Below are positions 12,569 to 37,406 of a DNA stretch of 64,000 nt, piece by piece. The notes beneath the pieces were generated by a model. It made no database searches, was not told where the DNA came from, and worked only from the letters and a program-made list of their open reading frames with translations. Location of the stretch: the IMG/VR virus record IMGVR_UViG_3300042398_001353; one strand, given 5' to 3'. The position numbers and the translations under genes are program-made. Each line of letters opens with the position of its first letter. The first letter of the stretch is position 1. The DNA comes from a virus (taxonomy: Duplodnaviria > Heunggongvirae > Uroviricota > Caudoviricetes).

Positions 12569-12622
12569 TATTTTGGAATATTAAAAAAATAATCTTAATT
12601 TTGAATTAACAATTAACTTTTA

Positions 12623-13394: not shown

Positions 13395-13416
13395 ACATAA
13401 TGATATTTATAAACAG

Positions 13417-22708: not shown

Positions 22709-23389
22709 ATGGGTAGAAAACTAAATGTCACTATTGGTGAACGGTTTGGTATGCTAACCATCATAGAATATCTTGGACTGTTTAATAAAGCAAAAAAAGT
22801 TGTTTGTAAATGTGATTGCGGGAATACCACAACAAAATACTATAGCAGTTTAACATCTAAAGATAGTAAATCCTGTGGCTGTGATATATTAGTACCATTA
22901 ATATCCGGTACACGTTATGGTAAACTTATTGCAGTTGAAGAACTTAAAAACAACAAGTCCAGAAAAAGATTAATAAAATGTCAATGTGATTGTGGGAATG
23001 AAAAAATTGTTTCATATGGTAATCTAAGGAGTAATAATACTAGATCCTGCGGTTGTTTAGTTATCCCACCCAAAAATACAAAAATAACCCATGGGAAAAC
23101 AAGAACCATTGAATACAATTCATGGAAAGCAATGAAAAGAAGATGTTATGATATAAACCATAAATCATATAATCACTATGGAGGAAGAGGTATTATTGTA
23201 TGTGATAGATGGTTAGAACTAGATGGTAATGGTTGTTCTAACTTCATACTAGATATGGGACTAAGACCGTCAAGCAAATATTCATTAGATAGAATAGATG
23301 TTAATGGTAATTACGAACCTAGTAATTGTAGATGGGCAACCCCTAAACAACAAGCAAATAATAAAAGACAAAAACAACCATCACACTAG
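22709..23389 (+). CDS. HNH homing endonuclease with tandem Cys4 zinc-finger repeats
   Basis: Two CKCDCGN...SCGC repeats, then KSYNHYGGRGIIVCDRW and SLDRIDVNGNYEPSNCRWATPKQQANN (HNH_3-type core). Confidence 0.65.
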   Translation: MGRKLNVTIGERFGMLTIIEYLGLFNKAKKVVCKCDCGNTTTKYYSSLTSKDSKSCGCDILVPLISGTRYGKLIAVEELKNNKSRKRLIKCQCDCGNEKIVSYGNLRSNNTRSCGCLVIPPKNTKITHGKTRTIEYNSWKAMKRRCYDINHKSYNHYGGRGIIVCDRWLELDGNGCSNFILDMGLRPSSKYSLDRIDVNGNYEPSNCRWATPKQQANNKRQKQPSH

Positions 23390-23419
23390 AGCCCTTGAGC
23401 ACTTTATGCGAAAGGGCGA
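23388..23419. repeat. 32-bp direct repeat, copy 2
   Basis: Identical to 13363..13394; overlaps the TAG stop of 22709..23389. Confidence 0.85.
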
Positions 23420-24200
23420 CCCTATATGTTCACTTTTGTTCTCTGTTCACGATCCGTGAACAACGGTATTTTGTGAACACCAGCTTCCTGGTTTGGCGCG
23501 TTTTTACTTCTGTATTTGGCACAATAATAAGCCTTAAATCTGCACAATAGAAGTATGCCAAAAAGTCCATATTTATGCAAATATATGCATATAATACTGA
23601 CATAATTGGTACTGAAAACATCGTAGCTAATTTTATTGCGTTTAGAGCCCCGTTAGGGGCATTTTTTTGGCTGGCTGTATTACAATCGCAAAAAGTGGGA
23701 AAAAATGTTAATAAGTGGGAACCACCCAGGAAGTGTCCCTTGTGTGAATCACGACCCACAAAAAAAATTATTTGGAATTTATATAGTTTTATTTAAGCTC
23801 GCCCACCCCCATAAAGGGGTCGCGGGCTCGCCTGCTTGCACCGGCCGGTGTATGACAGGTCATTAAAAGTGTTTAATGTATGGGCCTAAAAGTTAAACAA
23901 AATAAAGGGGTGTCATACGGCTCCGCAGGACGAGCCCAGTATGGTACTGGGCGAGCCTATACTGGTGTCATACGCAATTTAAAATAGTTTTATTTAGAAT
24001 GCTCGCCGGTCAGTACCATACTAACCGGCTCGCTGTTGGACCGTCATACAGTGGCCCAGGTCATACGGCGCCCATAAGTCATACGCATAAAAAAACCCAG
24101 AGGGTTAGTCTGGGCGTGATACAGGGCGAGGACCAGTATGGTACTGGTCCGAGCATCTATTATTTTAAACTTATGTCTACTGCGATGTTGTCATACGGCT
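23420..24200. repeat. convergent non-coding region with iteron arrays (candidate ori/pac/regulatory)
   Basis: 7 copies of GTCATAC(G) (23850 inverted; 23912, 23967, 24043, 24060, 24078, 24190), ~8 copies of GCTCGCC/GGCGAGC, 4 copies of GTTCAC/GTGAAC (23440-23500), two near-identical hairpins ccagtatggtactgg (23934..23952, 24130..24150). Confidence 0.6.
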
Positions 24201-24858
24201 GCCACTCGATCGGGGAATAATCTCTGAGCATATCTTCTACGCTTCTCCTCATATCGTTTGGTGTTGGTGTTTTAGGATCTTTACCGTCATACGTGACTCT
24301 TACTTTGAATGTGATACCTGGAGCCAGAGTTTCCTGGTGTCTTTTGGCTGTACCGTTTGCTTGGTAGGTTATGGAAATTGGAACGCCGTCTATTGAGGTT
24401 ACATTTTTTTGAATGTACTTAATGAGTTTAACCATTTTATTTAAACGAACTTGGATCTTTCTGTTAACTTCTTCCAGGTCCATTTTTTTATTTAGATTTA
24501 TTTTAATTTTGTTCATTAGGGTGTTTAGTGATTGGAGGCCGAAGTCTTTTACTTTGTCAGCTCCCATGATCATACTACTGATCTCACCCAGGTGTTCATA
24601 CTCTTCCATGATGACCTTGTTGATCATCCACTCTGAGTCATCTATTGCTGTGCCGGCCACTTCTACTATGTGACCCATTGCGTACATGTATAAATCGACA
24701 CCTACGTAAGGTGGAATGTTTTCAATGAACAGTGAGACTGCTACAATGTTATCGTCTCCCAGAGATCCGGTTTTGATATAGATCCTGTATTGGTATGGTC
24801 CATCTTTGTAGACTACGCCGGCCAGTTGGCCAAAGTCTGGTTCTTGCTTTTCTTTCAT
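24160..24858 (-). CDS. hypothetical protein
   Basis: 232-aa ORF; first gene of the - strand block. Confidence 0.4.
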   Translation of the reverse strand: MKEKQEPDFGQLAGVVYKDGPYQYRIYIKTGSLGDDNIVAVSLFIENIPPYVGVDLYMYAMGHIVEVAGTAIDDSEWMINKVIMEEYEHLGEISSMIMGADKVKDFGLQSLNTLMNKIKINLNKKMDLEEVNRKIQVRLNKMVKLIKYIQKNVTSIDGVPISITYQANGTAKRHQETLAPGITFKVRVTYDGKDPKTPTPNDMRRSVEDMLRDYSPIEWQPYDNIAVDISLK

Positions 24859-24872
24859 AATATATAAATATT

Positions 24873-24905
24873 AAAAAAAGGGGATCCGATTCCTCAGGTC
24901 CCCTT
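24873..24905 (-). terminator. rho-independent terminator (- strand)
   Basis: aagggga/tcccctt stem with 14-nt loop; on the - strand it is followed by TTTTTTT. Confidence 0.5.
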
Positions 24906-24930
24906 CTTTGAACAAACATATAGATGAAGC

Positions 24931-25119
24931 TTATACCGCCGTCTTAAGAAGTGAGTTACGGTACATTACTGCAGCACGTTTAGAACTTAAGTTCTTGCTG
25001 TAGCGCTCTCCGTTAAGGATCATTCTTACACGATAGCTTGTGCCATCAAAGTAAATGTTTGGTCCCACTGACTTATAAACTGTCAATGGTGTGGATTTGG
25101 TTGTTCTTTGTTTTTTCAT
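24931..25119 (-). CDS. small basic protein (possible DNA-binding)
   Basis: Track ORF trimmed to the MKKQRTTKST start (25119); the 5' extension runs through intergenic sequence. Confidence 0.35.
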   Translation of the reverse strand: MKKQRTTKSTPLTVYKSVGPNIYFDGTSYRVRMILNGERYSKNLSSKRAAVMYRNSLLKTAV

Positions 25120-25192
25120 AACATTTATTAATTTATAATAAAATATACGAAAAAAATCTGGAATAAAAAAATCCTGGGGGAATATAATTAAT

Positions 25193-25819
25193 TTAATCTT
25201 CTTGCTTCGACTGCAGGAACTCGCAGTAGTTGCAGGACCCATCCGATTCTAGCTCGGCCCCGCATTCCATACAATCAGGTTCACCTTCCGATTCGTCATC
25301 GGCGGATTGATCAATGAATACTAGTTGAAGCGCGACCACTTTATCATCAACCTCAGCCCCATACACTGGATACATCCCGTCACCCCAGCCGCTGCTGCTA
25401 ACAGCTCCTGCGTCATACGCACCCCAGCCTGATTCACCTAAGGTAAACTTGCACATCTTCTCATACCAGGCGTCACCTTCTAGATCCCGTCCAGGTAATA
25501 CAAAGTCAACATATGGAGTTTGAATCGCTTCTGCAGCAGAATCATTCCTGTATGACGCCGCATCAAACACTCCCGCTTGGCCGCTGTCGACGCCGAAGTC
25601 CCCGAACCAGTCATACACAAGATCCTTGGTAATCTGGTGATCCTTGTGAACCAGGAATAGCTCAGCGTTCCTGTTGGTTCCCTGCTTCTCATCATAGATC
25701 ATTGAAACGATCCATTCACCAGGTAATACATTGGTTAGTTTGGTTTGGCACCAGGTTGGTACACTGTAGCAAGGGTCCGTTACATATACTTCGGGCCCTA
25801 GGTTAATTGTCTTTGTCAT
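25193..25819 (-). CDS. hypothetical protein with acidic Cys-rich C-terminus
   Basis: 208 aa; ...DDESEGEPDCMECGAELESDGSCNYCEF. Confidence 0.4.
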   Translation of the reverse strand: MTKTINLGPEVYVTDPCYSVPTWCQTKLTNVLPGEWIVSMIYDEKQGTNRNAELFLVHKDHQITKDLVYDWFGDFGVDSGQAGVFDAASYRNDSAAEAIQTPYVDFVLPGRDLEGDAWYEKMCKFTLGESGWGAYDAGAVSSSGWGDGMYPVYGAEVDDKVVALQLVFIDQSADDESEGEPDCMECGAELESDGSCNYCEFLQSKQED

Positions 25820-25866
25820 AGTAAAGATTTTAGATTAGGTGGAAAGTTAAGAATAATTTCTTGAAA

Positions 25867-26055
25867 TCAAAAATTTTTTTCTAATTGATATTCTTCCTTG
25901 GCATACATCTCCAGGTTGAAGTCATCTTCTAATTCATCCAGGATGTTGATGATGGCCTGGGCTTCAGCTTCGGTAAATTTAATACCCATTGCTTGACAGT
26001 ACTGGACATGAGTTCTTCTAGAATCAATCCATAGTTTTAAGATTTGCGGATTCAT
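25867..26055 (-). CDS. small acidic protein
   Basis: 62 aa; conserved start context AAATAAAACTATATG. Confidence 0.35.
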   Translation of the reverse strand: MNPQILKLWIDSRRTHVQYCQAMGIKFTEAEAQAIINILDELEDDFNLEMYAKEEYQLEKNF

Positions 26056-26066
26056 ATAGTTTTATT

Positions 26067-26321
26067 TTAAATGATTGTTGGTCCCATATAGTTTTCATTG
26101 AAGGCCCTTCTGTCTGGGACCGGTAAATCCTCAGCCGGTTCTTTAACATCGATCATCGCAACCGGTGTTGCGGTAATCATATCCGGCTGGTCCCATTCGT
26201 GGATCTCGAATACTGTAGCGATCCCGTTGACGACGCTGTCATACGCTTGCTGAGCAGCAGCCCTTGCATCCGGAGCATCGATGTCGATCTCCCATACAAC
26301 TCTATAAGATTTATCTTCCAT
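26067..26321 (-). CDS. small acidic protein
   Basis: 84 aa, D/E-rich. Confidence 0.35.
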   Translation of the reverse strand: MEDKSYRVVWEIDIDAPDARAAAQQAYDSVVNGIATVFEIHEWDQPDMITATPVAMIDVKEPAEDLPVPDRRAFNENYMGPTII

Positions 26322-26368
26322 TTGAAATAGTTTTATTTTAAATTAATAATTCCGATCCTTATGCCGGA

Positions 26369-26821
26369 TTAGAATTCCTCTGGCTTCTGCACATGGTATT
26401 CCCAATCTCTTTCATCCATATTATCCCAATACTCATCACGCTTCTGGTCATATTCTGGGTCGTCTTCGTCGCCATCATAATCTGGGGTTACATCTTCCAG
26501 GTAAGTTACTTCCAGGGTAACTACTTTATTCACCAGGTCAAAGATAACTCTACCTTCGGAGCCGTCGTTATTAAAATCTGGTGAACTCACCGCTCTATCC
26601 ATTATATCCCAGATGTATGTATCTGCTATGGAATAGAAATCATTTTCATCACGAGAGCCAGGCTCTATTACTTTTCCTTTAGAATCTTCAATAGTAAAAT
26701 CGAAGAATGAGTCAAAGCTATCACCAGAACCCTGGTATCCAACTGTAATTTTAGCCGCCGCTGGGAATCTTTCCTTAAGCTCTGCTATTGTTTCTTTCTT
26801 GGTCTTTCTTACTTCTGCCAT
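26369..26821 (-). CDS. highly acidic protein (DNA-mimic candidate)
   Basis: 150 aa; long D/E runs (DYDGDEDDPEYDQKRDEYWDNMDERDWEY). Confidence 0.4.
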   Translation of the reverse strand: MAEVRKTKKETIAELKERFPAAAKITVGYQGSGDSFDSFFDFTIEDSKGKVIEPGSRDENDFYSIADTYIWDIMDRAVSSPDFNNDGSEGRVIFDLVNKVVTLEVTYLEDVTPDYDGDEDDPEYDQKRDEYWDNMDERDWEYHVQKPEEF

Positions 26822-26840
26822 TTTAAAATAGTTTTATTTG

Positions 26841-27260
26841 TTAATCAATATACTCAATTTTAACTGTTTTCTTCTCCTGCTTAATTATTCCATCAGGGAA
26901 TCGGAGCTTGGCCGACGACGGTGCTTCTCCCATACCGTTGTTCATCCAGGGCTTGAGCTGCAAGTTCTCCAGCCAGTCCTGCGGCGTTGGAATATATCTC
27001 ATATGATAATCCTCCAAGATGTGAAGCTCGCAGATATCCTTAACGCTCACGCTTCTCCCGCTGGAGTTAGTTATATATTCACCATAGATGGGAATGATTA
27101 CCTCAAAGATAAAGAACATATTATGCGTGAGCAGCCTGTGCCTGTTATCAGGAAAATATTTCTTACTGCAATCCATCTTGGAATGTATCTCTACATAATC
27201 CTGTGGAACTCCTCCCCATTTCTTAACAGAGGACTGTGCGTGTATTAACGGTGTTGCCAT
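26841..27260 (-). CDS. hypothetical protein
   Basis: 139 aa; N-terminal TPLIHAQSSVKKWGGVPQDYVEIHSKMD looks family-conserved but is unidentified. Confidence 0.4.
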   Translation of the reverse strand: MATPLIHAQSSVKKWGGVPQDYVEIHSKMDCSKKYFPDNRHRLLTHNMFFIFEVIIPIYGEYITNSSGRSVSVKDICELHILEDYHMRYIPTPQDWLENLQLKPWMNNGMGEAPSSAKLRFPDGIIKQEKKTVKIEYID

Positions 27261-27261
27261 C

Positions 27262-27579
27262 TTATGCTGGGATTAAGGTGAAGAATTCAACTTTGATTCT
27301 TTCCAGAGGAGTTACAGCTGATGCATCCAGTTCTGGATTCTCAGGGTTGGTTCCGTAGATTAAGCCGTTACCTACAAACTCTCTACCATCCAGTATAAAT
27401 CCATAGTCAGTCCCGTTAATAAGACCTTCCTCGTCGACCCATAGAGTATCTCCATTCGGGTAGTATCTTCCAATCTCCACCATATTAACATCCAGGATTA
27501 AGTACTTGTCTTCCAGCTGTCCCTTATTTTCAACAATGGATACTTGGCGGTTCTTTGCGTCGATGAATATAGCTTTCAT
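27262..27579 (-). CDS. hypothetical protein
   Basis: 105-aa ORF. Confidence 0.35.
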   Translation of the reverse strand: MKAIFIDAKNRQVSIVENKGQLEDKYLILDVNMVEIGRYYPNGDTLWVDEEGLINGTDYGFILDGREFVGNGLIYGTNPENPELDASAVTPLERIKVEFFTLIPA

Positions 27580-27585
27580 ATAAAT

Positions 27586-27813
27586 CTATTTTAAATTCTT
27601 TTTAAATCTGTTAATTGGAAATCTCATCCCGTAGAAGACATCATTTCTGGTGAGTCCCTGCAATCGCATAATCTCCCAGTAGTTGTCATAAAGATAATCG
27701 CACCAAGTTTCTGTGCGCAGGGGTTTCTTTGGGTCGTTGTCCCATACACCTCGTTTGTCATATGCATACTTCACCCAGAATTCCATAAGTTCTCCTTTTG
27801 TTAGAGCTTTCAT
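27586..27813 (-). CDS. hypothetical W/Y-rich small protein
   Basis: 75-aa ORF. Confidence 0.3.
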   Translation of the reverse strand: MKALTKGELMEFWVKYAYDKRGVWDNDPKKPLRTETWCDYLYDNYWEIMRLQGLTRNDVFYGMRFPINRFKKNLK

Positions 27814-27998
27814 ATAGTTTTATTTAAAAGGTTATTCATCTTGTTGATTTCGGTATCCAGTAAACTGGTGAGCCTCTCCATTTCTTTCTTCCAGTCGTGG
27901 TGAGCTCGGCTTCTCTTATTTAGTTGTGGGAGCTTTAATGATTTCAGCTCCCTTAACTTCTGTTCGATTTGCTTCTTATTCTCCATGCTCGATTTCAT
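27810..27998 (-). CDS. small coiled-coil protein
   Basis: 62 aa, K/E/L-rich heptad-like. Confidence 0.3.
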   Translation of the reverse strand: MKSSMENKKQIEQKLRELKSLKLPQLNKRSRAHHDWKKEMERLTSLLDTEINKMNNLLNKTI

Positions 27999-28242
27999 AA
28001 CTTCCGCAGTTATAGTTAATGATGCTGAAGAACTTTAAGTATTTGATGCAAGTGTCATCAGCTCTGTTGATGGCTTCACGCAGATTGTTATCCACAATCG
28101 CTTGGGCAAAGCTACCACCCATTTGAACTTTATCACGAGTCATCAATACTGATGCTGCAACATCTATTGCGTGCTGCTCCTCAACTTTCCATCTTGCTGC
28201 CCATCTTTGCGCAGCCGCTTTGTACTTTGCTACTTTGTCCAT
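27976..28242 (-). CDS. hypothetical small protein
   Basis: 88-aa ORF. Confidence 0.3.
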   Translation of the reverse strand: MDKVAKYKAAAQRWAARWKVEEQHAIDVAASVLMTRDKVQMGGSFAQAIVDNNLREAINRADDTCIKYLKFFSIINYNCGSYEIEHGE

Positions 28243-28262
28243 AGTTTTAATTTTTTGTAATA

Positions 28263-28661
28263 TTAAGAAATGTTTTTTAATTCCACAAATAAAGTTTTCC
28301 CCATACTAACAATATTGTCATACGAAGCTCCGTCCACATTCTGTCCCCCGCATAACCAGTTCGGCTGCACGCGGGGATTATAAGATAGCTGCTCAAAATT
28401 CTTGAGCTGTGTAATACTTGGGCCTTCTAGATCTGTCAGGATGCTGATCTCATTGCAGAGAATCCAGGCACAGACACTTTTGTTCGCGCCCTGGTGAATC
28501 TTGTTAGCTGTTGACTTCTGGTTCTTCACCGTGCAGCCCGTCATACGCAGCTGTACAGCATCCGGGTTAATATATCTCGCCGGTTGTCCAGGGATGTCAA
28601 TCTTCCAGGTCATATAATTCTTACCGGCCGCCAGGTTAAATCTCACTTTAATTGATTTCAT
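28263..28661 (-). CDS. hypothetical protein
   Basis: 132-aa ORF. Confidence 0.35.
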   Translation of the reverse strand: MKSIKVRFNLAAGKNYMTWKIDIPGQPARYINPDAVQLRMTGCTVKNQKSTANKIHQGANKSVCAWILCNEISILTDLEGPSITQLKNFEQLSYNPRVQPNWLCGGQNVDGASYDNIVSMGKTLFVELKNIS

Positions 28662-28667
28662 ATAGTT

Positions 28668-28877
28668 TTATTTTAAAACTTCAAAGTGCTTGTTAAAAAA
28701 TTCTTCGCTAACAATTTTCTTTGCTTCCCTGTTTGCGATTTCATTACCAACTAATTTATCTCCACGCTTCGTAAACAGGACCGCCGCATCAGGCCAACCC
28801 CATACGCCGCCTTCGCGTAGTACATGAAGGATGTTAGTAAAGAATTCTTCGTTTGCTTTGATTTTATGCTTTTCCAT
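28668..28877 (-). CDS. hypothetical small protein
   Basis: 69-aa ORF. Confidence 0.3.
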   Translation of the reverse strand: MEKHKIKANEEFFTNILHVLREGGVWGWPDAAVLFTKRGDKLVGNEIANREAKKIVSEEFFNKHFEVLK

Positions 28878-28916
28878 TGTTTTAAGATTATGCAGTAAAG
28901 GTAATTGTTTTTCTTG

Positions 28917-29303
28917 TTATTCCAAAAAATTTTTTAACTTCTTTAAAAAGATTTGTTTTAAAAATTCTTCGTCCACATCTCCTGGTTTTAATTCGTCTGT
29001 CTTTCCCAGGTATTTCCTGAACTCTGTTTGCTTCCCGTTCACATTGAAGATGCATCTAGCATACGTGTAGTACGTGCCGGCCTTCTCAAGTTCTGTGTAG
29101 TAGATCTTCACATCCCTGGTGGATCTGATCTGTTTTAGCCGGTCGTTAACTATTTTGAAATCAGCCAGGAGCCTTTGTAATACCTGGTCCCTTTCCATGT
29201 GAACCAGGACTTTATTCCGCCTGGTTGTCCATCCCATTTTATCTAGCTCCGCCTCATCTACTTTACTCGGCTTCCTCACTAGCTTCGATAATTCATCTAA
29301 CAT
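28917..29303 (-). CDS. hypothetical protein
   Basis: 128-aa ORF. Confidence 0.35.
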   Translation of the reverse strand: MLDELSKLVRKPSKVDEAELDKMGWTTRRNKVLVHMERDQVLQRLLADFKIVNDRLKQIRSTRDVKIYYTELEKAGTYYTYARCIFNVNGKQTEFRKYLGKTDELKPGDVDEEFLKQIFLKKLKNFLE

Positions 29304-29656
29304 GATACTAATTGTTTGGTTATATAATTTTTTGATATGACAGCTCTGTGCACCATGGCCAGATCTTCCATCTTGAGATCACTATAAAAAACATAGCGAT
29401 CCGCGCCATCTTCATTAACAGCGATCAACTCATTTGTTGATCCGTCTATCCCTGTAATGATCACGTCTTCATTTCCGTTATGGATTGTGGGCCTGTAGTA
29501 TTGTACTGTACATTCGATCGGGTATTTAAACGCGATCTCAAATTCTTCTGGCTCCAGACGGTTATCTGTTATAACTGTACAAATAATTTCCTGGTGCATT
29601 CTATCCCTTAACCTGGTAATTTCATTTACGTAGTCCATATGTGTGTTTTTTTGCAA
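29297..29656 (-). CDS. hypothetical protein
   Basis: 119-aa ORF. Confidence 0.35.
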   Translation of the reverse strand: MQKNTHMDYVNEITRLRDRMHQEIICTVITDNRLEPEEFEIAFKYPIECTVQYYRPTIHNGNEDVIITGIDGSTNELIAVNEDGADRYVFYSDLKMEDLAMVHRAVISKNYITKQLVSC

Positions 29657-29658
29657 TG

Positions 29659-30429
29659 TTACAAAATATTTTCTTTGGATACAATAAACTTACTTTTAGA
29701 TAAATCTATTTTATTTCTCACCTTCTTATACTTTAGGCCGATCACTACCTTCCCAGGATCTTGATATCTCATATCATAAAGATCACCGTCAACAACTGGG
29801 ACGCCCCAATACTGTGCAGGAACCTCTTCGAATACTACAGCTACTCTGATCTCCTGCTCAAGGGCTAACAGTGATTCTGCAATGTTATTCCCGCTGAAGG
29901 AAAAAGTAATGTCATAGTTACTGTATTTCTTCGCCAGCTGTATACGCTTGAAGACTTTAGTATAATCATAGAACTGTACATCTGGAAACATCTCCAGGAT
30001 GTTTTTACCATCCAGGTGAAACTGTTCAGGGCTCAGGTCACTAGTACCGTTCAGCCGCACGCTAAAACTTTTGCCTGCTGCAATAGCTTTCTTCTGCGCG
30101 CTGCGTATTTCATCCTGCAGCCAGCCCATAAAGAATGCGCGCTGCTCAAAGAATAACTTTGTCTTTGTGATACGGGCTTTATTAATTGTATTCTCATGGA
30201 TATCGATTCTGTTATGTCCGCTCTCATTTAAGCAGGCTGTAGTACATTCAATGCTGCGCATTGGGCAAACTTCATAGCCGCTAGATTTAGCAGGAGCTAG
30301 ATAAAGGATGTAGGTCATCTCGTCATACTTCAGACCTTTGGCGATCTTTGAGCTAGTGTTGATCCCACCTAGGTAGCTCAGTCCTGTCATACGTTTCGCG
30401 TCCGCTTTGTTCTTGTAAGTCATAGTCAT
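29659..30429 (-). CDS. Cys-cluster protein (possible Fe-S or Zn binding)
   Basis: 256 aa; YEVCPMRSIECTTACLNESGHN (C-x6-C-x3-C). An in-frame ATG 13 codons downstream lies inside a CGTATGAC motif, so a 30390 start is possible. Confidence 0.4.
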   Translation of the reverse strand: MTMTYKNKADAKRMTGLSYLGGINTSSKIAKGLKYDEMTYILYLAPAKSSGYEVCPMRSIECTTACLNESGHNRIDIHENTINKARITKTKLFFEQRAFFMGWLQDEIRSAQKKAIAAGKSFSVRLNGTSDLSPEQFHLDGKNILEMFPDVQFYDYTKVFKRIQLAKKYSNYDITFSFSGNNIAESLLALEQEIRVAVVFEEVPAQYWGVPVVDGDLYDMRYQDPGKVVIGLKYKKVRNKIDLSKSKFIVSKENIL

Positions 30430-30445
30430 TTAAATTTAGTGTTCA

Positions 30446-30476
30446 CAAAGATAAATAAAATTATTTAATTACCAAA
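30446..30476 (-). promoter_or_regulatory. Bacteroidota-type promoter (- strand: TTTG-N19-TATCTTTG)
   Basis: - strand reads TTTGGTAATTAAATAATTTTATTTATCTTTG, 17 nt upstream of ATG 30429; near-identical copy at 35474..35504. Confidence 0.5.
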
Positions 30477-30488
30477 AATATTTTTTTG

Positions 30489-30800
30489 TTACCAAGAAAG
30501 CTCGAACTGGTTCCAGATAGATTCGTCTAGCTCCCAGCTTTCTGGTGCAGGTAATACGAGCCAGCTCAAGGCGTCCTGAATAATTACATCCCTGCTTGTC
30601 CCGTCTGGCCAGTCTTTTGTGTACGCCTTCCCTGATCCGAGAATATCCCAGATCTCTTCAGGTTCCATGTCTTCAGTCATCCTATTCTGGTAATACATAC
30701 TCACCTGATTTTCATCATTATGGTACACAGATACCACGCCGCCGTCTTCGACTATTACATCGAACTCCATTTCGTTTATTTCATTTATTCTATACTTCAT
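30489..30800 (-). CDS. small acidic protein
   Basis: 103 aa, D/E/W-rich. Confidence 0.35.
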   Translation of the reverse strand: MKYRINEINEMEFDVIVEDGGVVSVYHNDENQVSMYYQNRMTEDMEPEEIWDILGSGKAYTKDWPDGTSRDVIIQDALSWLVLPAPESWELDESIWNQFELSW

Positions 30801-30802
30801 AG

Positions 30803-31045
30803 CTAAATTATTTTAATGAATATGTTATTGAAATTAATTTGGTCATTGTTCGCCTGAAGCTCGAATCCTTTCAAGCTCCATACTAAACCCTGAGCTTCAG
30901 CTTCCTTAATAAATTCTTCAGAGCTGTCCCAGATGCTGTGCTGATCAGGTAGTACATCCAGATCAACGCCGTAGACTCTGATCTGCTGTCTGGCATAATC
31001 CAGTACTTCAATGCGTGCTGTTTCGCTGGCTGGTATAAATTCCAT
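30803..31045 (-). CDS. hypothetical small protein
   Basis: 80-aa ORF. Confidence 0.3.
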   Translation of the reverse strand: MEFIPASETARIEVLDYARQQIRVYGVDLDVLPDQHSIWDSSEEFIKEAEAQGLVWSLKGFELQANNDQINFNNIFIKII

Positions 31046-31056
31046 ATAGTTTTATT

Positions 31057-31317
31057 TTAAATTACGCTGTTGATTAATTCTATCTGTGCTTCGAAGCCTG
31101 AATCGGTTCTGTCCCATTTACCTTCTAATGCCCATTCGGCATCCTCCTGTAGCGTAATTAACGCATCGACCAGCGGAATGGTACAGGAATCAAACACGTG
31201 GGAGTCCAGCGTGGTCATATCTAAAGGTAGCTCATCATTAACAGCTAACTCTACCAGAACAGCTTTTAACTTCTCATTGAAGTTCATAATCTTGAAATCT
31301 CTTTCTGTATTTTCCAT
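31057..31317 (-). CDS. small acidic protein
   Basis: 86 aa, strongly acidic. Confidence 0.35.
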   Translation of the reverse strand: MENTERDFKIMNFNEKLKAVLVELAVNDELPLDMTTLDSHVFDSCTIPLVDALITLQEDAEWALEGKWDRTDSGFEAQIELINSVI

Positions 31318-31323
31318 ATAGAT

Positions 31324-31515
31324 TTAATTTAAAAATTGAAGTTCTGGTTTACCCTCTACCACCATCCATTGACAATTGGATAATGAATAATCTAATCCGT
31401 TCTCATCATCCTCGATAAATTCCTCATAGTTGTCATCTGGACAATTTACTAAATCTAGCACATCTATCGTGCTGGTTTCAAAATTTAGGATTACTACAAA
31501 CATTTCTTTTTTCAT
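31324..31515 (-). CDS. small acidic protein
   Basis: 63 aa, D/E-rich. Confidence 0.3.
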   Translation of the reverse strand: MKKEMFVVILNFETSTIDVLDLVNCPDDNYEEFIEDDENGLDYSLSNCQWMVVEGKPELQFLN

Positions 31516-31526
31516 ATAGTTTTATT

Positions 31527-32360
31527 TTATTTTGTTTCTTCTTCTTTTTCTGCTGGTGTTATACCTTCTGGTAACTTCTCGAATTCTACATACCCATTAT
31601 TCTCATCATAGAATCTGTAGATATCATTCCAGCCAGTATATTTTAACTTCTGTCCATTCACCATATATTCCTTCCAGTGTTCCAGTCCAGCGACCTTCTC
31701 CATTTTATTCTTCTTCTTAGCATACTTAAGACCTTCTTTATACAAAGTATTAAATCTTTTTAATTCCTCAGCATTCAAGAAATCTAATTGCTTTAATGTT
31801 CTTTCATATGATTCTTTAATCTCAGCCATATCATCTTCAAACCAATATTCCATATTGTTATCAATTTCGTGCCAGAATAAATCTTCATCAATTCTGTATA
31901 TACCAGCATAGTAATCCAGACAGAATTCTTCCAGTACATCTCCATCATCTACTACCAACTTACCAGCATACCAGTCACCACTCTCATCATATGTGTGTTC
32001 AATATGTAACCTGTACTGGCTGGAGAGTAATTTAGCAAAACCTGTTACAGGACTCCAAGCAGAATCAAAACACATAGTGATGCATTCATCATCATCCTCA
32101 AGTACAGACATAAATTCCTCAGCAGACTTCTGCCACTTGCTACCATATACACGAATGTTATGCTCGTACCAGCCACCTTCTTCATTCCAGTCATCCTCTC
32201 TGCCCACCAGATAGTCATACGCACCTCCCCAGACTTTTGGGTTGGCTTTCATATCATCCTCCATAAACAGAAGTTTGGCTCTGAGTCTTTTGATTCCTTC
32301 TTGAGTAGTATCTGACTCTGAAGGGGTAATTGTCATTGAGTTGTTGCACCAATTTGGCAT
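31527..32360 (-). CDS. hypothetical W/Y/E-rich protein
   Basis: 277 aa; begins MPNWCNNSMTI. Confidence 0.4.
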   Translation of the reverse strand: MPNWCNNSMTITPSESDTTQEGIKRLRAKLLFMEDDMKANPKVWGGAYDYLVGREDDWNEEGGWYEHNIRVYGSKWQKSAEEFMSVLEDDDECITMCFDSAWSPVTGFAKLLSSQYRLHIEHTYDESGDWYAGKLVVDDGDVLEEFCLDYYAGIYRIDEDLFWHEIDNNMEYWFEDDMAEIKESYERTLKQLDFLNAEELKRFNTLYKEGLKYAKKKNKMEKVAGLEHWKEYMVNGQKLKYTGWNDIYRFYDENNGYVEFEKLPEGITPAEKEEETK

Positions 32361-32380
32361 AGTAGTATCGTTTAGGTGAG

Positions 32381-32411
32381 CAAATATAAACCTATTTTAA
32401 TTCCAAACAAA
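32381..32411 (-). promoter_or_regulatory. Bacteroidota-type promoter (- strand: TTTG-N19-TATATTTG)
   Basis: - strand TTTG ... TATATTTG, 21 nt upstream of ATG 32360. Confidence 0.4.
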
Positions 32412-32485
32412 TTTTTTTGTAATAATTTTTATTAAAAAGAAGACCGACCTATGACAATCGGTCTTCAGGGAACAACTAACCTTTA

Positions 32486-32866
32486 CTAACCTAACCTACC
32501 TTTTATTTGATGTAGTACGTATTCACCTTCTCTCTGATAACCCACGCTGAAGTCATCAGATTTTTTATCAATGAAACATATACCACGTAATTTCTTTCCA
32601 TCAGTATTCACTGATAGTTTACCCATAAATGAGTTAAAAGATTTTTCAAGCTTGTCTGACAAATCATTGTCATTATTAGTGATGACATATTTTGTACCGA
32701 ATCTTTTGAATCTAATTTTATGTCTCTCACTCTTCAGATCTTCAGCCAATAACTTCTTCAAGCCACCAAGTGATTTCTTGATAGTTGGTAAATCATTTGT
32801 CTTTTTTGTTGTCATACGAATTTTTATTTTGTGAATAACTTTGCAAAGATATGCAACTTTTTCCAC
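32486..32866 (-). CDS. basic protein (possible nucleic-acid binding)
   Basis: 126 aa, K/R-rich; alternative start MTTKKTNDL at 32815 inside a CGTATGAC motif. Confidence 0.35.
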   Translation of the reverse strand: MEKVAYLCKVIHKIKIRMTTKKTNDLPTIKKSLGGLKKLLAEDLKSERHKIRFKRFGTKYVITNNDNDLSDKLEKSFNSFMGKLSVNTDGKKLRGICFIDKKSDDFSVGYQREGEYVLHQIKGRLG

Positions 32867-33143
32867 ATATTGGCATTTGTTTAAAGTTTTTTATTTTTGG
32901 TTAAACAAAATAAAGTAGGTGGAACTGGGGGAAGTCCCACCCCTTTACCTAACCACCATTAACCACTATGAACAAAAAACAAAATAAAACTATTTTAAAG
33001 TCCCTCGACTAATGGGAGTAATACGAACCACGTTAACGCGAACCAGAATACTACCAATGCGAACGAACCATACATGTCCCAAAATTCTTTTCGATCATTA
33101 TACCAAAGGTCTTTCGACCCTTGATATAATTCTTTTAACATCT

Positions 33144-33521
33144 CTACCATCTTTGATTATTATAATTGTTATTATAATTGTTTCTCCTTTGGTTATTGTT
33201 ATAAGGTCTTTGCTGATAACCACCACCCATATTATTGGTATAGTCATTACGCAATCTCTCGTGGAAGTCTTCTCCACCACCCGCATCAACTTCAACCCAA
33301 TCATTAGTTTGGAATTCTCCCGCTAATGTGTTCTCTCCTAACTCCTTAATTGTTTGCAGTTCCTCATCCACAATAGCGAATGTATCGTTTTGGAAGTTTA
33401 TGCGTGTAGCATACTTCTGCGTTGTCTTTTCAAACATTCTAAATGCAGTAGTCATTTGGTCTAGATTCACTAGTGTTACCTTTCCCGTTTGAGTGTAAGT
33501 TAACTTGATAATAGTTGCCAT
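33144..33521 (-). CDS. protein with N/Y/Q/R-rich low-complexity C-terminal tail
   Basis: ...NNMGGGYQQRPYNNNQRRNNYNNNYNNQRW. Confidence 0.4.
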   Translation of the reverse strand: MATIIKLTYTQTGKVTLVNLDQMTTAFRMFEKTTQKYATRINFQNDTFAIVDEELQTIKELGENTLAGEFQTNDWVEVDAGGGEDFHERLRNDYTNNMGGGYQQRPYNNNQRRNNYNNNYNNQRW

Positions 33522-33556
33522 AATTGATAAAATTTAAAATTTAAAATAAAATTGTT

Positions 33557-33892
33557 TTAATTAAAAGTTTCATATGTGTTAACGAAGATTGGAGTCTGCT
33601 CTCCTACATATGCGCAAAAGGTATTGTACTCCAAGAATTCCCAAGCATCTTCCTCAGTCATCGGCTCTAAATCCGTTTTGTCTTTGGATTCCATAATGCT
33701 TTTATAATCCATCTCCAATAATAAGTGCACCATCCATTCTTTTGAATAAACTAATTGTCCGCCATCAGTTAATCCTATTATGGCTTTGTCATACCCATTA
33801 GGGTCGCCATCGAATCCATCGGGTTTAAGTGCTAAACAACTTTCAGCAGTTTCATTAACAATGTCTAAATCTACTTTGTGAGTATTTTCCAT
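33557..33892 (-). CDS. hypothetical acidic protein
   Basis: 111-aa ORF. Confidence 0.35.
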   Translation of the reverse strand: MENTHKVDLDIVNETAESCLALKPDGFDGDPNGYDKAIIGLTDGGQLVYSKEWMVHLLLEMDYKSIMESKDKTDLEPMTEEDAWEFLEYNTFCAYVGEQTPIFVNTYETFN

Positions 33893-33966
33893 TTGAATAA
33901 AATTGAATTAATAAATTAATGATGCAATATTACGAATTATTCTTGATATTAAAAAATTATTTTTAA

Positions 33967-34434
33967 TTAGAAGATTTCAAATCCTCCACAAACTTTTAAA
34001 AATGAAATAAATCTTTTTAAATGTCCAAGCGTTACGGAGTGAGATGCTTCAACCACATCGCCAGCTTTTGTGACAACGCTTGAATATAAGATTGTACCAT
34101 TAGGATACTGAACTGATATACCTTGCGGTCTTATTGATTGATTAGTATTGGTATCAATCCACATCCCTAAACAAACATACATTCGATCATCATCGCTTTT
34201 AAGAAACGGATGGTCTTTGATATGTCTTTCAAGTTTATCAGCCATCTTCATACAATCCTTTGCATTTAATCCGCTACCATCGTTATAACCCCAACGGCTC
34301 ATATCAAAATTAAGATTGTGTTTCATATTCAAATACTCACACAAGTAGTGAATAGGTCTCCAAGACCATAGGTTCGCGTGAAAAGTTTCACCATCAGTAT
34401 TGATTGGGTTTATACCCATTACATCCATTCCCAT
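33967..34434 (-). CDS. hypothetical protein
   Basis: 155-aa ORF. Confidence 0.35.
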   Translation of the reverse strand: MGMDVMGINPINTDGETFHANLWSWRPIHYLCEYLNMKHNLNFDMSRWGYNDGSGLNAKDCMKMADKLERHIKDHPFLKSDDDRMYVCLGMWIDTNTNQSIRPQGISVQYPNGTILYSSVVTKAGDVVEASHSVTLGHLKRFISFLKVCGGFEIF

Positions 34435-34438
34435 AATA

Positions 34439-34768
34439 TTATAGTTTAATTAAGTTAGCTAATTGAAATTCGAATTCTTCGCGCATTCCCTCCTCATCAT
34501 ATACTTTGATTGTTTCATCATCGTTTGGATGGTAGAATGCAATATCCACATTAATAGTGTTGCTCACAATCTTCTGCATAGTAATTGAATACTCCGTTTC
34601 GTGAATTGTATCCATATGCTGACTGCCGGCATATCTATTCTGCGAATGCACTACTACTGAGGAGTGAGAGCCAATCGGCTCCCATCCATCAGCGGACATT
34701 TCTTCTATCTTCTTATTCAAACTTGTGCTTGAACTTGCGGTAATGATTTTAATCTTCTTCATCTTCAT
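34439..34768 (-). CDS. DUF1737/DUF4177-like small protein
   Basis: ...EMSADGWEPIGSHSSVVV pattern (GWxPxG). Confidence 0.3.
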   Translation of the reverse strand: MKMKKIKIITASSSTSLNKKIEEMSADGWEPIGSHSSVVVHSQNRYAGSQHMDTIHETEYSITMQKIVSNTINVDIAFYHPNDDETIKVYDEEGMREEFEFQLANLIKL

Positions 34769-35183
34769 CAGTATTAAAGGTTAATTCACATTTGTTATTT
34801 ACTACTTCAATAATTTGTAGCAACCAATCCAATTGAGGAAATTGATAGATACGAACTGAATGCGTTTCTCCCGACTCAATCTCGTACATATGAATAAACA
34901 CTTCGGGGTCACCATCATCATCACGGCACGCACTCACCGAATGAATTTCATAATTGTCTTGTAGGATTAACTCTCCATCGTGGAAATTTAAACACGCATT
35001 TTTCATACTTGCATTATGAATTACTTTGGTAATTTCACCAAGATTAAGATTGGATATGTCATCCATACTAACTTGGTCTCTAACTGCTTTGGTCATAAGC
35101 ATCGCGAATACTGCTCTCTCGGTTTCTAATCCGTGCTTATAATAAGACTCACGAATTCCGTTTACAATTGGATTGATTTTCAT
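34749..35183 (-). CDS. hypothetical acidic protein
   Basis: 144-aa ORF. Confidence 0.35.
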   Translation of the reverse strand: MKINPIVNGIRESYYKHGLETERAVFAMLMTKAVRDQVSMDDISNLNLGEITKVIHNASMKNACLNFHDGELILQDNYEIHSVSACRDDDGDPEVFIHMYEIESGETHSVRIYQFPQLDWLLQIIEVVNNKCELTFNTDEDEED

Positions 35184-35194
35184 AATAATTAAAA

Positions 35195-35452
35195 TTAAAA
35201 GTTATTGATAAATTTTACATTTTCTTTGATGAAGTCCATCACCTTGTCTGCGTAATACGAACTCGTTAATTCATTTAGATATTGAATAATATCAAAATCT
35301 GCATCACGCATATTAACTCTAAATTCCCTACCCATTATTTTTTCTTTGGTAGTCCAATCAAGTGCATCAATATTGATTGTGTCACTTGTAGTACACACTT
35401 GGATAATTCCTCCGACTGCGTACTCTCCGATTTTAAATGTTTTCTTTGCCAT
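35195..35452 (-). CDS. hypothetical small protein
   Basis: 85-aa ORF with its own promoter. Confidence 0.35.
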   Translation of the reverse strand: MAKKTFKIGEYAVGGIIQVCTTSDTINIDALDWTTKEKIMGREFRVNMRDADFDIIQYLNELTSSYYADKVMDFIKENVKFINNF

Positions 35453-35473
35453 AGGTTAAATTGTTTTGTTTAG

Positions 35474-35504
35474 CAAAATTAAATAAAATTATTTAATTAC
35501 CAAA
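35474..35504 (-). promoter_or_regulatory. Bacteroidota-type promoter (- strand: TTTG-N19-TAATTTTG)
   Basis: - strand TTTGGTAATTAAATAATTTTATTTAATTTTG, 22 nt upstream of ATG 35452. Confidence 0.5.
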
Positions 35505-35505
35505 A

Positions 35506-35712
35506 TTATTTTTTTGGTTCATCAAGAATTCTATAAACATCGTCATACGGCTGAACTGCAAGGCTTGACCCATTGTCCCATTTAACGTGGATCTGCCCAA
35601 TGCCATCAATAGATTGTATTACCCCACGTGTCTTTGGTGGTGGTGCTTGCGGATCATCCATTTTAATGATCTCAATGATTTGACCGATCGGCCAGGTTTT
35701 TGACTTTTCCAT
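35506..35712 (-). CDS. hypothetical small protein
   Basis: 68-aa ORF. Confidence 0.3.
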   Translation of the reverse strand: MEKSKTWPIGQIIEIIKMDDPQAPPPKTRGVIQSIDGIGQIHVKWDNGSSLAVQPYDDVYRILDEPKK

Positions 35713-35734
35713 TTTTGATTTTATTTAAGGGTGA

Positions 35735-36085
35735 TTAATTATATTCATAAAGTTCTTGATTCCTTTCACAAACATATGCAAAACACGAACGCACATTCCA
35801 TATCAAATCTTCCTCCGTACTTTTTGCTAAACTTAACCAATCATCAGTAGACTCGAACTCGTCATACGCAAATTCCCATATCAAGTCTATAAGGTTGTAT
35901 CGGAAATTACCGATCGCTTTTTCATCCGTGATCAAAAGCCATTGGTAATACGTGATCATAGTATCGTGCAGATCATCCAATTCCTTATCGGTTAAAATAA
36001 ATTCATCGAATGTGGAGGAGTTAAACTTCCAAATTGATTCGGAAAATTCACCACGAGTGTATATCAAAGTTTTAGGATCTAACAT
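35735..36085 (-). CDS. hypothetical acidic protein
   Basis: 116-aa ORF. Confidence 0.35.
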   Translation of the reverse strand: MLDPKTLIYTRGEFSESIWKFNSSTFDEFILTDKELDDLHDTMITYYQWLLITDEKAIGNFRYNLIDLIWEFAYDEFESTDDWLSLAKSTEEDLIWNVRSCFAYVCERNQELYEYN

Positions 36086-36190
36086 AATGAATGCAATTTA
36101 TTTTATTCTAATTAAATTACCAAATATTTTTTTTGTAATAAGCAGATAGAAAAATAACCCGCACCCGTAATACGAATGCGGGGTAACTAC

Positions 36191-36436
36191 TTAGAACGGG
36201 GTTGGTATGCTTTTAACCAATTCAGCAAGGGACTGCGCTATCCTACTTAAAATTGGGTCTTTACTTTCAGTGTATCCAACATACTCACTTTTAGCATTAC
36301 CAGTGAAATAAGGAGTAGGCGGAACATATCCACGACTTACATTAAGTTTTTCCGCCCATTCATTAAAGGACAATTCGCTTTTGAACTTACTTGGTCTTAC
36401 CCTTAAATTTTCGGGTGCATTTACATTGTTGCTCAT
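36191..36436 (-). CDS. hypothetical small protein
   Basis: 81-aa ORF. Confidence 0.3.
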   Translation of the reverse strand: MSNNVNAPENLRVRPSKFKSELSFNEWAEKLNVSRGYVPPTPYFTGNAKSEYVGYTESKDPILSRIAQSLAELVKSIPTPF

Positions 36437-36521
36437 AATTGAAATAGATTTAATTTAAATTGTAATACGAAATTAATAAAAAATTGGATAGGGACAATAC
36501 ATCCCTACCCAATAATTTTTG

Positions 36522-37406
36522 TTAGCTAATCAGTTGACCTAATTCTGCAAACACTTCGCGCTCTCTACGGCCGTACACTCCGAACAATTTGTTCTCGTTG
36601 CTATCACCTTTTAATTGGTGAGTAGTGTACTTTGTAATACCTGAGAACAATCCCCAAAGGTTACCGCCCTTGTCTTGCACCTCGCCCATAATATTCACCT
36701 CCAAATCGGATAGGATATTTTTCTTGCGAGTAGATAGAGTAGACAAATCAGCTAAACGCTCCTCACCCTCTAAATTAAGGATGCGAGTTAAAGCCAAATC
36801 CTTAACGGATGCAAAGCCTTTTGATTTAAGGGATTTAAGTAATACGGCACTAGGCTCATTGATCGAAATAGAGTCCATCTTGATAATCTGCTCGAATATC
36901 TTTTCCTCCGCGCGTAGTACATCCTCAATCTGCATACAAATCAAATCGATTCGCTCGTGCATCTTTTGAGTATGACGCACTTTGTTAGCCATCTCGCGAT
37001 AGTTAGCAAAGAAAGTGTTTTGGCAAGAGATAGTAAGATTGCTATGGCCAAAAGCAAGTGAGGTAGAGCCATCAAAACTATTCACGCAAGTAAGATACCC
37101 TTTTACCATATCATTATTTACGCGCTGGTCTTTTGTCTTTAATTGAACATAGACCTTTTGGCCTTCGCCAAAATAACCTCCTTTGTGTAGAGGTAAATCC
37201 ATCTTACCACTAATGCGGTCAAGAATTTCCATCATCTCTAAATTCTGCAAAGGGTGATAACCCTTTCCGTGTACTCCAAGAATAGCATTATTATCCGTGC
37301 GGACAATAGCAATGCTATCCGTTTCGATGTTACTTTCTGCGGTAACTAATCGTTCGCCTTTAACGGCCCAATTCAAATTCGCTTGTTTTAAAATTGCATT
37401 TTGCAT
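36522..37406 (-). CDS. hypothetical protein (possibly phage/plasmid-like DUF932 family)
   Basis: 294 aa; size and N-terminal pattern reminiscent of DUF932, not verifiable by eye. Confidence 0.35.
   Translation of the reverse strand: MQNAILKQANLNWAVKGERLVTAESNIETDSIAIVRTDNNAILGVHGKGYHPLQNLEMMEILDRISGKMDLPLHKGGYFGEGQKVYVQLKTKDQRVNNDMVKGYLTCVNSFDGSTSLAFGHSNLTISCQNTFFANYREMANKVRHTQKMHERIDLICMQIEDVLRAEEKIFEQIIKMDSISINEPSAVLLKSLKSKGFASVKDLALTRILNLEGEERLADLSTLSTRKKNILSDLEVNIMGEVQDKGGNLWGLFSGITKYTTHQLKGDSNENKLFGVYGRREREVFAELGQLIS

Follow-up and report, generated by a model that had tools for sequence, protein, structure and literature searches.

What is the function of a long gene-free gap, crowded with repeats and hairpins, that separates two convergent gene blocks of a large phage? 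The question is raised by IMG/VR record IMGVR_UViG_3300042398_001353, of which a stretch of 64,000 nt (the window) was analyzed, and in particular by its positions 23,420 to 24,200, where genes of the plus strand meet genes of the minus strand. A first reading made from the letters alone (the sequence-only reading) had proposed a replication origin, a packaging (pac) site or a hub of DNA-binding sites. Our analysis supported the last of these, since the region appears as a dense and conserved array in which short invariant motifs alternate with variable spacers and one group of boxes resembles the operator of MraZ. The explanation that we favour, and hold with middling confidence, is that the region forms the conserved non-coding cis-regulatory end of an early operon and acts as a compound control region.

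The window derives from an uncultured large phage without a close relative among GenBank phages. DNA and protein searches of those phages found no relatives, and a scan of viral contigs with a single protein matched nothing. Relatives were found on metagenomic contigs of 93-312 kb, with about 30 related loci reached through homologues of a 232-aa protein whose gene adjoins the region. In 12 relatives, the non-coding block that extends from the stop codon of this gene to the end of a segment termed block N was 83-93% identical to the window (487-491 nt), compared with only 55-82% for the last 695 nt of the adjacent gene. Alignment of the relatives showed that short motifs within the block are invariant while the spacers drift, and that one AT-rich spacer has two unrelated forms and is deleted in one locus (L159). 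The repeats were conserved in the related loci, and no protein-coding gene was found there. Open reading frames within the region, which had already been held not credible, varied in frame and length among relatives, with indels of 23 and 46 nt, and a protein-coding reading was rejected on this ground. The region had also been described as richer in GC than the rest of the window; this was true against the plus block (0.44 versus 0.33) but not against the immediate right-hand neighbours (0.41-0.43 in 500-nt windows), and the contrast is therefore with the window as a whole.

The minus-strand block to the right (coordinates of all features are given in Table 1) encodes proteins with DUF932, GP88, DUF4241 and DUF1281_C (Api92-like) domains, and DUF3846 and DUF6915 domains are found in the relatives' version of it. 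Its GC content (0.38) is about 5 points above that of the rest of the window (0.33). Because canonical TTTG-N19-TAnnTTTG promoters precede several genes of the window, including three in this block, the host of the phage is probably a member of the Bacteroidota. The same sigma-A promoters suggest that the block is transcribed by the host RNA polymerase, and from the host-type promoters together with the gene content we infer that it comprises early, host-takeover genes. Its gene content is reminiscent of anti-defence or plasmid leading-region islands.

Evidence that the region carries a regulatory site of a known type came from block N, its most conserved ~90 nt. Block N is near-identical in relatives whose neighbouring protein is 40-48% identical, including L168 (40%), and it is also present in a second phage group (L170-L175). 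The three boxes of its array follow each other with a 10-bp period. Across six lineages the spacers vary while both outer boxes and the TG of the middle one never change; L064 has ATGG as its middle box (GTGG/ATGG/GTGG), and L155 has GTGG there and hence three perfect boxes. Such an array is unique in the 64-kb window, where 0.017 are expected. A 29-nt pattern taken from block N (TTCCCACTTNTNNNCANTTNNTCCCACTT) matched 35 bacterial genome contigs, from Bacteroidota, Betaproteobacteria, Desulfobacterota, Mycoplasmatota and other groups, and the matches consisted of a triple 10-bp repeat of AAGTGGGAA. An ORF for MraZ accompanied 30 of the 35 matches, with the array directly upstream of mraZ. The array is followed by mraZ-rsmH-ftsL-ftsI in Myroides albus (L184), and the order mraZ-rsmH was confirmed beside it in Thauera (L206). 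By published definition, the MraZ operator consists of three or four GTG(G/T) boxes that are set apart by 6-nt spacers and lie upstream of the dcw cluster (PMC12957436, PMC8475190). On account of the shared 29-nt pattern, the block N array fits this definition at the sequence level: it has three GTG(G/T) boxes, 6-nt A-rich spacers and the same AAGTGGGAA repeats that lie upstream of bacterial mraZ.

The genomic context is different. The phage array lies in a non-coding region with neither mraZ nor dcw genes beside it, and it carries an extra inverted GTGGG box and ~40 nt of invariant sequence that have no bacterial counterpart. Unlike in Bacteroidota mraZ loci, there is no TAnnTTTG -7 box within ~10 nt of the array, the nearest promoter-like element lying ~50 nt downstream. 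Since the sequence definition applies and the genomic context does not, we describe the array as one that may work like, or mimic, an MraZ operator rather than as a true member of the class. To our knowledge MraZ has not been tied to phage biology before; the cited work on MraZ is silent on phages, and no literature search was dedicated to this point.

A second line of evidence was provided by the repeat GTCATACG, which the sequence-only reading had taken for a local iteron. The reported copies were located at 23912, 23967, 24060, 24078 and 24190, with GTCATACA at 24043 and an inverted TGTATGAC copy at 23849. In the whole window, however, there are 15 exact copies against 0.54 expected, and 10 of them fall within genes of the adjoining 13-kb block and share one orientation, so that the repeat is not a local iteron. 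Written as CGTATKAC, the motif occurs 18 times in sense and 0 times in antisense in the coding part of the early block (0.2-0.6 expected), where it is among the two most over-represented 8-mers. The degenerate form YGTAYKAC occurs in the early block 29 times in sense and twice in antisense. These copies occupy all three reading frames as well as intergenic spacers, and the idea of a peptide repeat was rejected because of their distribution over the frames. Near the C-terminus encoded by the 232-aa gene, NCG-TAT-GAC is found in 15 of 15 relatives though the first codon specifies Pro, Ser or Ala, and the Tyr and Asp codons are never swapped synonymously. By these comparative criteria the octamer is selected at the nucleotide level. 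Its polarity is uniform in the relatives too (3-6 sense copies per ~3 kb of genes and no antisense copy), which have 5-7 copies in the first 450 nt downstream of the genes and none beyond. The other 50 kb of the window lack it on both strands, an absence that is weakly significant (expected 0.6-1.1 for the strict form; expected 4.5-7 and observed 0 for the degenerate one).

Among known systems, the octamer is comparable to Chi (RecBCD/AddAB) and to KOPS and SRS (FtsK/SpoIIIE) in that it is over-represented ~30-fold, keeps one orientation, falls in all frames and shows selection at synonymous sites. It differs from them in being limited to one transcription unit and its 3′ flank instead of genome-wide, co-oriented with transcription, much more closely spaced (one per ~0.7 kb) and without enrichment in the sampled bacterial DNA, where 240 kb of assorted loci contained 7 copies, with the reservation that the true host may differ from those sampled. 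The octamer was also considered as a hairpin-loop motif, and was not enriched in loops (4 of 34 versus a background of 7%). As a promoter it was rejected, with 3 of 29 copies intergenic and no likeness to published jumbo-phage promoter motifs. A literature search for the octamer returned no relevant paper.

Some copies have a local context worth recording. Between two early genes, a CCCGCA/TGCGGG hairpin (36191-36160, minus strand) carries CGTATTAC (octamer at 36174) in its loop. In L175, TGTATGAC occurs twice in a CCCGG...CCGGG hairpin-like context, the first copy with a T run and terminator-like, the second with an imperfect stem and no T run. The inverted octamer of the window (23849-23856, GTCATAC on the minus strand) stands in the common orientation, GTATGAC, at the same place in L151, L157 and L159, and the loss of the AT-rich spacer in L159 (window 23860-23911) occurred by deletion between two direct octamer copies.

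Within the region, the octamers are gathered in two tandem modules with a period of ~200 bp (repeat spacings 201 and 197). The repeats and hairpins of the region occur far more often than expected by chance. The twin hairpins previously reported were confirmed at 23934-23952 and 24130-24150, as was the CCCC-ATAAA-GGGG palindrome at 23806-23819. Two further units had been overlooked, namely a third, inverted copy (H2) and a fourth built on the CCCC hairpin (H0). The 13-nt hairpin core CAGTATGGTACTG is present in two exact copies and one inverted copy with one mismatch. The claim of about eight copies of GCTCGCC/GGCGAGC had to be revised to four exact ones, the others being partial (CTCG/CGAG hairpin flanks). 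The four units H0-H3 alternate in orientation; YGTATGAC follows the CTCG-type units within 1-11 nt, and a cassette follows the CGAG-type units within 2-4 nt. Read on the minus strand, the order of the elements is H3 (CTCG flanks), octamer, terminator, three octamers, H2 (CGAG flanks) and AAATAAAACTAT cassette, after which come an octamer, H1 (CTCG flanks), a further octamer, the spacer, the inverted octamer, H0 (CGAG flanks) and the second cassette. In the early block the same 12-nt cassette, as TAA-AATAAAACTAT-ATG, joins at least 8 small genes; it contains the stop codon of the upstream gene and abuts the next ATG, and is a candidate translation-initiation or coupling cassette, or a candidate promoter.

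Comparison of the relatives indicated that what is kept in the hairpin units is structure rather than sequence. In L168, GCCCRGCCCC-ataaa-GGGG stems stand in place of the CAGTA-NNN-TACTG stems, and the octamers are kept; L175 has GGGACTC, GGACC and TCGACC stems instead, and keeps the octamers and the CTCG/CGAG flanks. The same comparison supports the function of two predicted convergent intrinsic terminators, which enclose ~420 nt and whose stems are rebuilt and not lost. The plus-strand terminator keeps its position in all relatives, with a stem remodelled to AGCTC/GAGCT in L155, where the T run is retained, and with a different, weaker hairpin in L168, still followed by a T run. The minus-strand terminator is swapped in L167 for an unrelated hairpin, AGTCCC-TTCG-GGGACT, again with a T run after it, and its changes in the L141 lineage remain compatible with a hairpin. 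Two ideas were discarded on the way. A small plus-strand RNA ending at the 23647 terminator was rejected, as the terminator hairpin was the one conserved structure found. DNA inversion between the inverted hairpins by the serine recombinase of the window was rejected too, no relative having an inverted segment.

Between block N and the modules lies an AT-rich element that is oriented rightwards, into the modules. Judged by inspection, it is similar to the promoter repeats of the early block at 30446, 32377 and 35474 (minus strand, TTTG-N19-TAnnTTTG before start codons).

Alternating GC-rich hairpins directly after the last gene of an operon are also typical of REP/BIME-type elements and of 3′ stabiliser hairpins. 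The region could thus be a heap of selfish or structural repeats, or remnants of lost cassettes, that piled up in a gene-free gap with no specific function. Two intercistronic cassette copies with no gene behind them, the homing endonuclease genes that adjoin the region in the window and in L064, and the dispensability of one spacer would all agree with this. We nevertheless regard it as most improbable: conservation of the block exceeds that of the neighbouring genes, its length is constant within 4 nt over deep divergence, and its motifs are invariant while the spacers drift. Furthermore, the hairpin units are found nowhere else in the 64 kb, unlike dispersed REP/BIME elements, and are coupled at a fixed short distance to an octamer or to the AAATAAAACTAT cassette.

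The modules might instead be one or two genes for structured non-coding RNAs (ncRNAs) of ~160 nt, an interpretation that we consider unlikely. A rightward RNA would start at GCTCGCC behind an AT-rich box, and its GUCAUACG seeds would pair with CGUAUGAC sites in early mRNAs to effect a multi-seed antisense shut-off; a leftward RNA would be a sponge with the same sites as the early mRNAs. The two modules are indeed paralogous, of similar length, with pairable 5′ and 3′ ends and terminal hairpins, and other lineages swap the hairpin stems yet keep the hairpins. Compared with shuffled sequence, each strand folds much better (z -5.3 and -5.6), but a palindromic region folds well on both strands regardless of function. 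Where H2 departs from Watson-Crick pairing, G.U pairs can form on the minus strand in 14 of 14 sequences (14 G.U there against 14 mismatches on the plus strand), with an opposite trend in the inner H0 stem. H1 and H3 show no covariation because both are invariant. A precedent exists in a Bacteroidota phage whose early region holds highly transcribed intergenic regions (bioRxiv 10.1101/2020.03.07.982082). Rfam gave no family match at gathering thresholds in the window, and hits at chance level only (E>5) at permissive thresholds in 23300-24300; ARAGORN found no tRNA or tmRNA. Neither module is framed by a canonical promoter or terminator. The antisense version is further weakened, and the octamer was rejected as an antisense seed match, because ~40% of the coding sites are variants (CGTATTAC, TGTACTAC) with no perfect complement in the modules of the window.

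The compound control region that we favour would combine these elements as follows. Host MraZ, or a phage protein of like specificity encoded outside the window, would bind block N, and this MraZ-type protein would gate the adjacent promoter-like element. A second sequence-specific factor would recognise CGTATKAC in the sense strand of the early unit, either as mRNA or as non-template DNA. The hairpin-framed modules after the last gene would present a concentrated array of octamer sites and serve the whole early unit as a loading, titration or decay-control site, and block N and the octamer system would jointly set the level and timing of early-gene expression. Tentatively, we also entertain a bolder possibility, in which the phage copied the host MraZ operator to gate a switch and the octamer is a strand-specific address code of all early genes. 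Such a code would be kept even at the cost of rare codons and would let a single factor recognise the whole early unit for coordinated shut-off, protection or processing. Variants of the scheme, in which the octamers belong to an antisense multi-seed RNA, a same-sense sponge, a Chi-like or nick-like DNA signal or an origin, were each rated lower, and not all of them are mutually exclusive.

Several observations weigh against the control region so conceived. An hmmsearch (E<=10) of the window and of the fetched phage loci revealed no MraZ homologue, and the binder would therefore be a host protein or something encoded elsewhere. The factor that reads the octamer is purely postulated. The middle box of the array is degenerate in the window (ATGT). 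A profile built from bacterial mraZ-upstream arrays had the block N array as its sole significant match in the 64 kb (E 0.0011); this match counts in favour of an operator but is partly circular, because the pattern that had retrieved those arrays came from the phage. The promoter-like element has a poor -7 box (TAAGCTCG versus TAnnTTTG), which is not conserved in L064, and both the transcribed strand and promoter activity in the region are predictions. Hairpin evidence on the strand is mixed, H2 and the outer H0 stem favouring minus and the inner H0 stem favouring plus. Finally, three octamers lie just downstream of a good terminator, which is awkward for an action in early mRNA.

Could the region be a replication origin, as the sequence-only reading had suggested? 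Sites for an initiator or a host factor would then be provided by the GTGGGA boxes and possibly by the GCCAAA...GAAGT and GTTCAC repeats, the A8/AT-rich tract would be the unwinding element, and the opposed hairpins would be single-strand initiation signals as in IncQ oriV. The layout is that of iteron origins such as lambda ori and the IncQ/RSF1010 oriV, with short direct repeats, an AT-rich tract (23760-23796) and GC-rich inverted hairpins on both strands. The region shows strong conservation and has an insulating terminator on each side; the version in the L175 lineage has a perfect DnaA box (TGTGGATAA, L175 ~10610), and the DnaA-domain-IV-like protein noticed earlier in the window was borne out. 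However, there are 0 DnaA boxes (TTWTNCACA) in 23300-24300 of the window, and no initiator or other replication gene was found adjacent, the neighbours being an HNH endonuclease gene and an early gene without a reliable family match. The peak of the cumulative GC skew, at ~24 kb, falls exactly on the switch in gene orientation and is uninformative because of this coincidence. An origin would also leave unexplained why the main repeat runs on one strand through 13 kb of coding sequence and why a box array copies the MraZ operator: repeats of origin type do stand beside the AT-rich tract, but the box repeats match a transcription-factor operator instead. Having found no positive support for it, we judge an origin quite unlikely.

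The suggestion of a pac site fared no better, as fixed contig ends were seen in one lineage only and no terminase gene was identified near the region. A related explanation is a genome end or DNA-entry structure like the T5 repeat regions, with an injection-stop signal, in which Chi-like or nick-like octamers would protect or mark the DNA that enters first. The T5 regions, which are untranslated and belong to the first-step-transfer DNA, are large non-coding tracts beside the earliest genes, better conserved than nearby ORFs, rich in repeats and palindromes, with boxes for a host protein (DnaA); in some phages an HNH endonuclease gene has inserted into or beside them (bioRxiv 10.1101/866236). 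The present region shares these traits, and T5 offers the nearest described architectural analogue, although the function of the T5 regions is itself a hypothesis. It differs in having MraZ-type boxes in place of DnaA boxes, in showing no terminal repeat or terminus, whereas the T5 region is part of a terminal repeat, and in having no sequence similarity. The orientation of the octamers could be read by a RecBCD-type enzyme entering from the low-coordinate side, but the lack of enrichment in the sampled bacterial loci speaks against such a use, with the same reservation about the host as above. One lineage is represented by a 312-kb contig and five short ones, obtained from different samples, that all stop at an identical base; this end precedes a GCAATC-TTTC-GATTGC hairpin and a CTGC-GAA-GCAG mini-hairpin, both absent from the window. 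However, the region is traversed by contigs of 93, 157 and 255 kb and by those of other lineages, a single copy of it was found per contig with no evident terminal repeat, and the early genes are transcribed towards it, not away. A terminus deduced from contig ends was rejected as not reproduced beyond one lineage, strain heterogeneity beside a variable, endonuclease-rich flank being the simpler cause. We consider a genome end very unlikely.

Phage control regions that borrow host DNA-binding proteins such as DnaA and IHF are of a known kind; the MraZ mimicry and the octamer code are potentially new. MraZ is nearly universal, and its physiological role is still poorly understood. If the borrowed operator is real, it would be new, MraZ would gain a role outside the dcw cluster, and the phage might read, or tamper with, the cell-division state of its host. 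The octamer is a clean case of selection at the nucleotide level within phage genes that would mark one temporal class on one strand, and its reader, once known, could reveal a new way in which phages regulate or protect an early anti-host gene block.

Table 1. Features of the region and of its surroundings in the 64-kb window (positions refer to the window unless a contig is named).
Feature	Position	Strand	Remarks
Boundary hairpin element AGAGCCCTTGAGCACTTTATGCGAAAGGGCGA	23388..23424		Far edge of conserved block; second copy 13363-13399
GTTCAC module TGTTCAC-N-TGTTCACGATCCGTGAACA-N-GTGAACA	23429..23481		Optional; 46 nt; nested inverted repeats
GTTCAC-module cores elsewhere	L073 ~178-214, L074 ~10002-10030, L079 ~539-602		One contig 304 kb
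Direct repeats CTTC-N4-TTTGGC(A/G)C	23485-23500, 23509-23524	+	Left half of region
Inverted partial copy GAAGTATGCCAAA of this repeat	~23549-23561		
Predicted intrinsic terminator of rightward transcription	23647..23668	+	GCCCC-GTTA-GGGGC then T run
Block N	23673..23759		Most conserved ~90 nt; MraZ-type box array and inverted GTGGG box
Three-box array, 10-bp period	23695..23718	+	GTGG 23695, aTGT 23705, GTGG 23715; AAGTGGGAA-N-TG-N-AAGTGGGAA
Inverted fourth box	23752..23759	minus	GTGGGTCG on minus strand, then GTGATTCAC palindrome; invariant in six aligned lineages
AT-rich element CAAAAAAAATTATTTGGAATTTATATAGTTTTATTTAAGCTCG	23758..23801	+	Putative paralogue of host-type promoters of early block; TTTG -33 box, weak -7 box TAAGCTCG
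Second cassette copy	23783-23794		No gene behind it; less conserved
Module 1, ~162 nt	23797..23958		GCTCGCC, H0, inverted octamer, AT-rich spacer, octamer, H1
Parts of module 1	H0 (CCCC hairpin unit) 23801-23827; inverted octamer 23849-23856; octamer 23912-23919; H1 23929-23958		
Polar octamer CGTATGAC cluster	23919-23912, 23974-23967, 24067-24060, 24085-24078	minus	Motifs invariant, spacers vary
TGTATGAC variant in octamer cluster	24050-24043	minus	
AAATAAAACTAT cassette	23984..23995	minus	No gene behind it; invariant in relatives
Module 2, ~157 nt	24001..24157		GCTCGCC, H2, three octamers, minus-strand terminator, degenerate octamer, H3
Parts of module 2	Inverted H2 24006-24028; octamers 24043, 24060, 24078; degenerate octamer 24115-24122; H3 24124-24157		
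Predicted intrinsic terminator of early block	24088..24115	minus	GCCCAGA-CTAACCC-TCTGGG then T7
Early gene block	24160..37406	minus	Many small genes; carries polar octamer
TAA-AATAAAACTAT-ATG cassettes, examples	26067-26056, 27825-27814, 28673-28662, 31057-31046, 31527-31516	minus	Within 26055-31527; near-invariant
Bacteroidota sigma-A promoters (TTTG-N17-21-TAnnTTTG)	35504-35474, 32411-32381, 30476-30446	minus	Shortly before start codons
Same	10405-10435, 12572-12603	+	Shortly before start codons
Same	61397-61366	minus	Shortly before start codon
DnaA domain IV-only protein, 138 aa	10451-10867	+	PF08299, E 1.2e-14; behind host-type promoter
Two T5orf172/MUG113 (GIY-YIG-like) proteins	11606-12568, 19643-20419	+	Plus block
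Small serine recombinase (Resolvase and Recombinase domains)	18973-19635	+	Plus block
HNH homing endonuclease gene	22709-23389	+	Adjoins region on left
Shared contig end	L142 (312 kb), L144-L148		Homologous to ~window 23421

To the left of block N the region carries further elements. The four copies of GTTCAC/GTGAAC reported before were confirmed, with their palindrome at 23444-23462. They belong to a module that is present in the window, L064, L151, L155, L162, L165 and L167 and missing from L141, L153, L164, L211 and L212. Its TGTTCACGATCCGTGAACA core and outer TGTTCA/TGAACA half-sites recur in intergenic DNA of the unrelated viral contigs L073, L074 and L079, and the module could represent a common operator or a small mobile element. 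The palindrome was considered as a LexA/SOS box, which was rejected as the Bacteroidota motifs GGA-N5-TCC and CTAA-N5-TTAG do not fit; a literature search for it yielded no relevant paper. The CTTC-N4-TTTGGC(A/G)C repeats (23482-23560), whose counterparts in relatives read GCCAAA-N4-GGAAGTA, are further candidate protein sites.

The repeat noted at the left edge of the region was confirmed as two copies of a 32-37 bp element that are 95% identical (the boundary hairpin element). In the copy beside the region, the stem shows a compensatory change, from GCCCTT/AAGGGC in the window to GCCCCT/AGGGGC in L064, L151 and L155. Homology among relatives ends at this element, and the neighbours beyond it differ by lineage; in L064 the left flank is occupied by a different endonuclease-like gene. 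Because the L175 lineage places a metallophosphoesterase (LpxH-like) gene and the glycosyltransferase gene that follows it next to block N, the two copies may mark a rearrangement boundary. In the window, an LpxH-like metallophosphoesterase gene (13381-14109) comes directly after the other copy, which itself ends a second non-coding stretch of ~300 nt (13074-13400) that is GC-richer and has a negative GC skew. The plus block as a whole is rich in genes for mobile nucleases.

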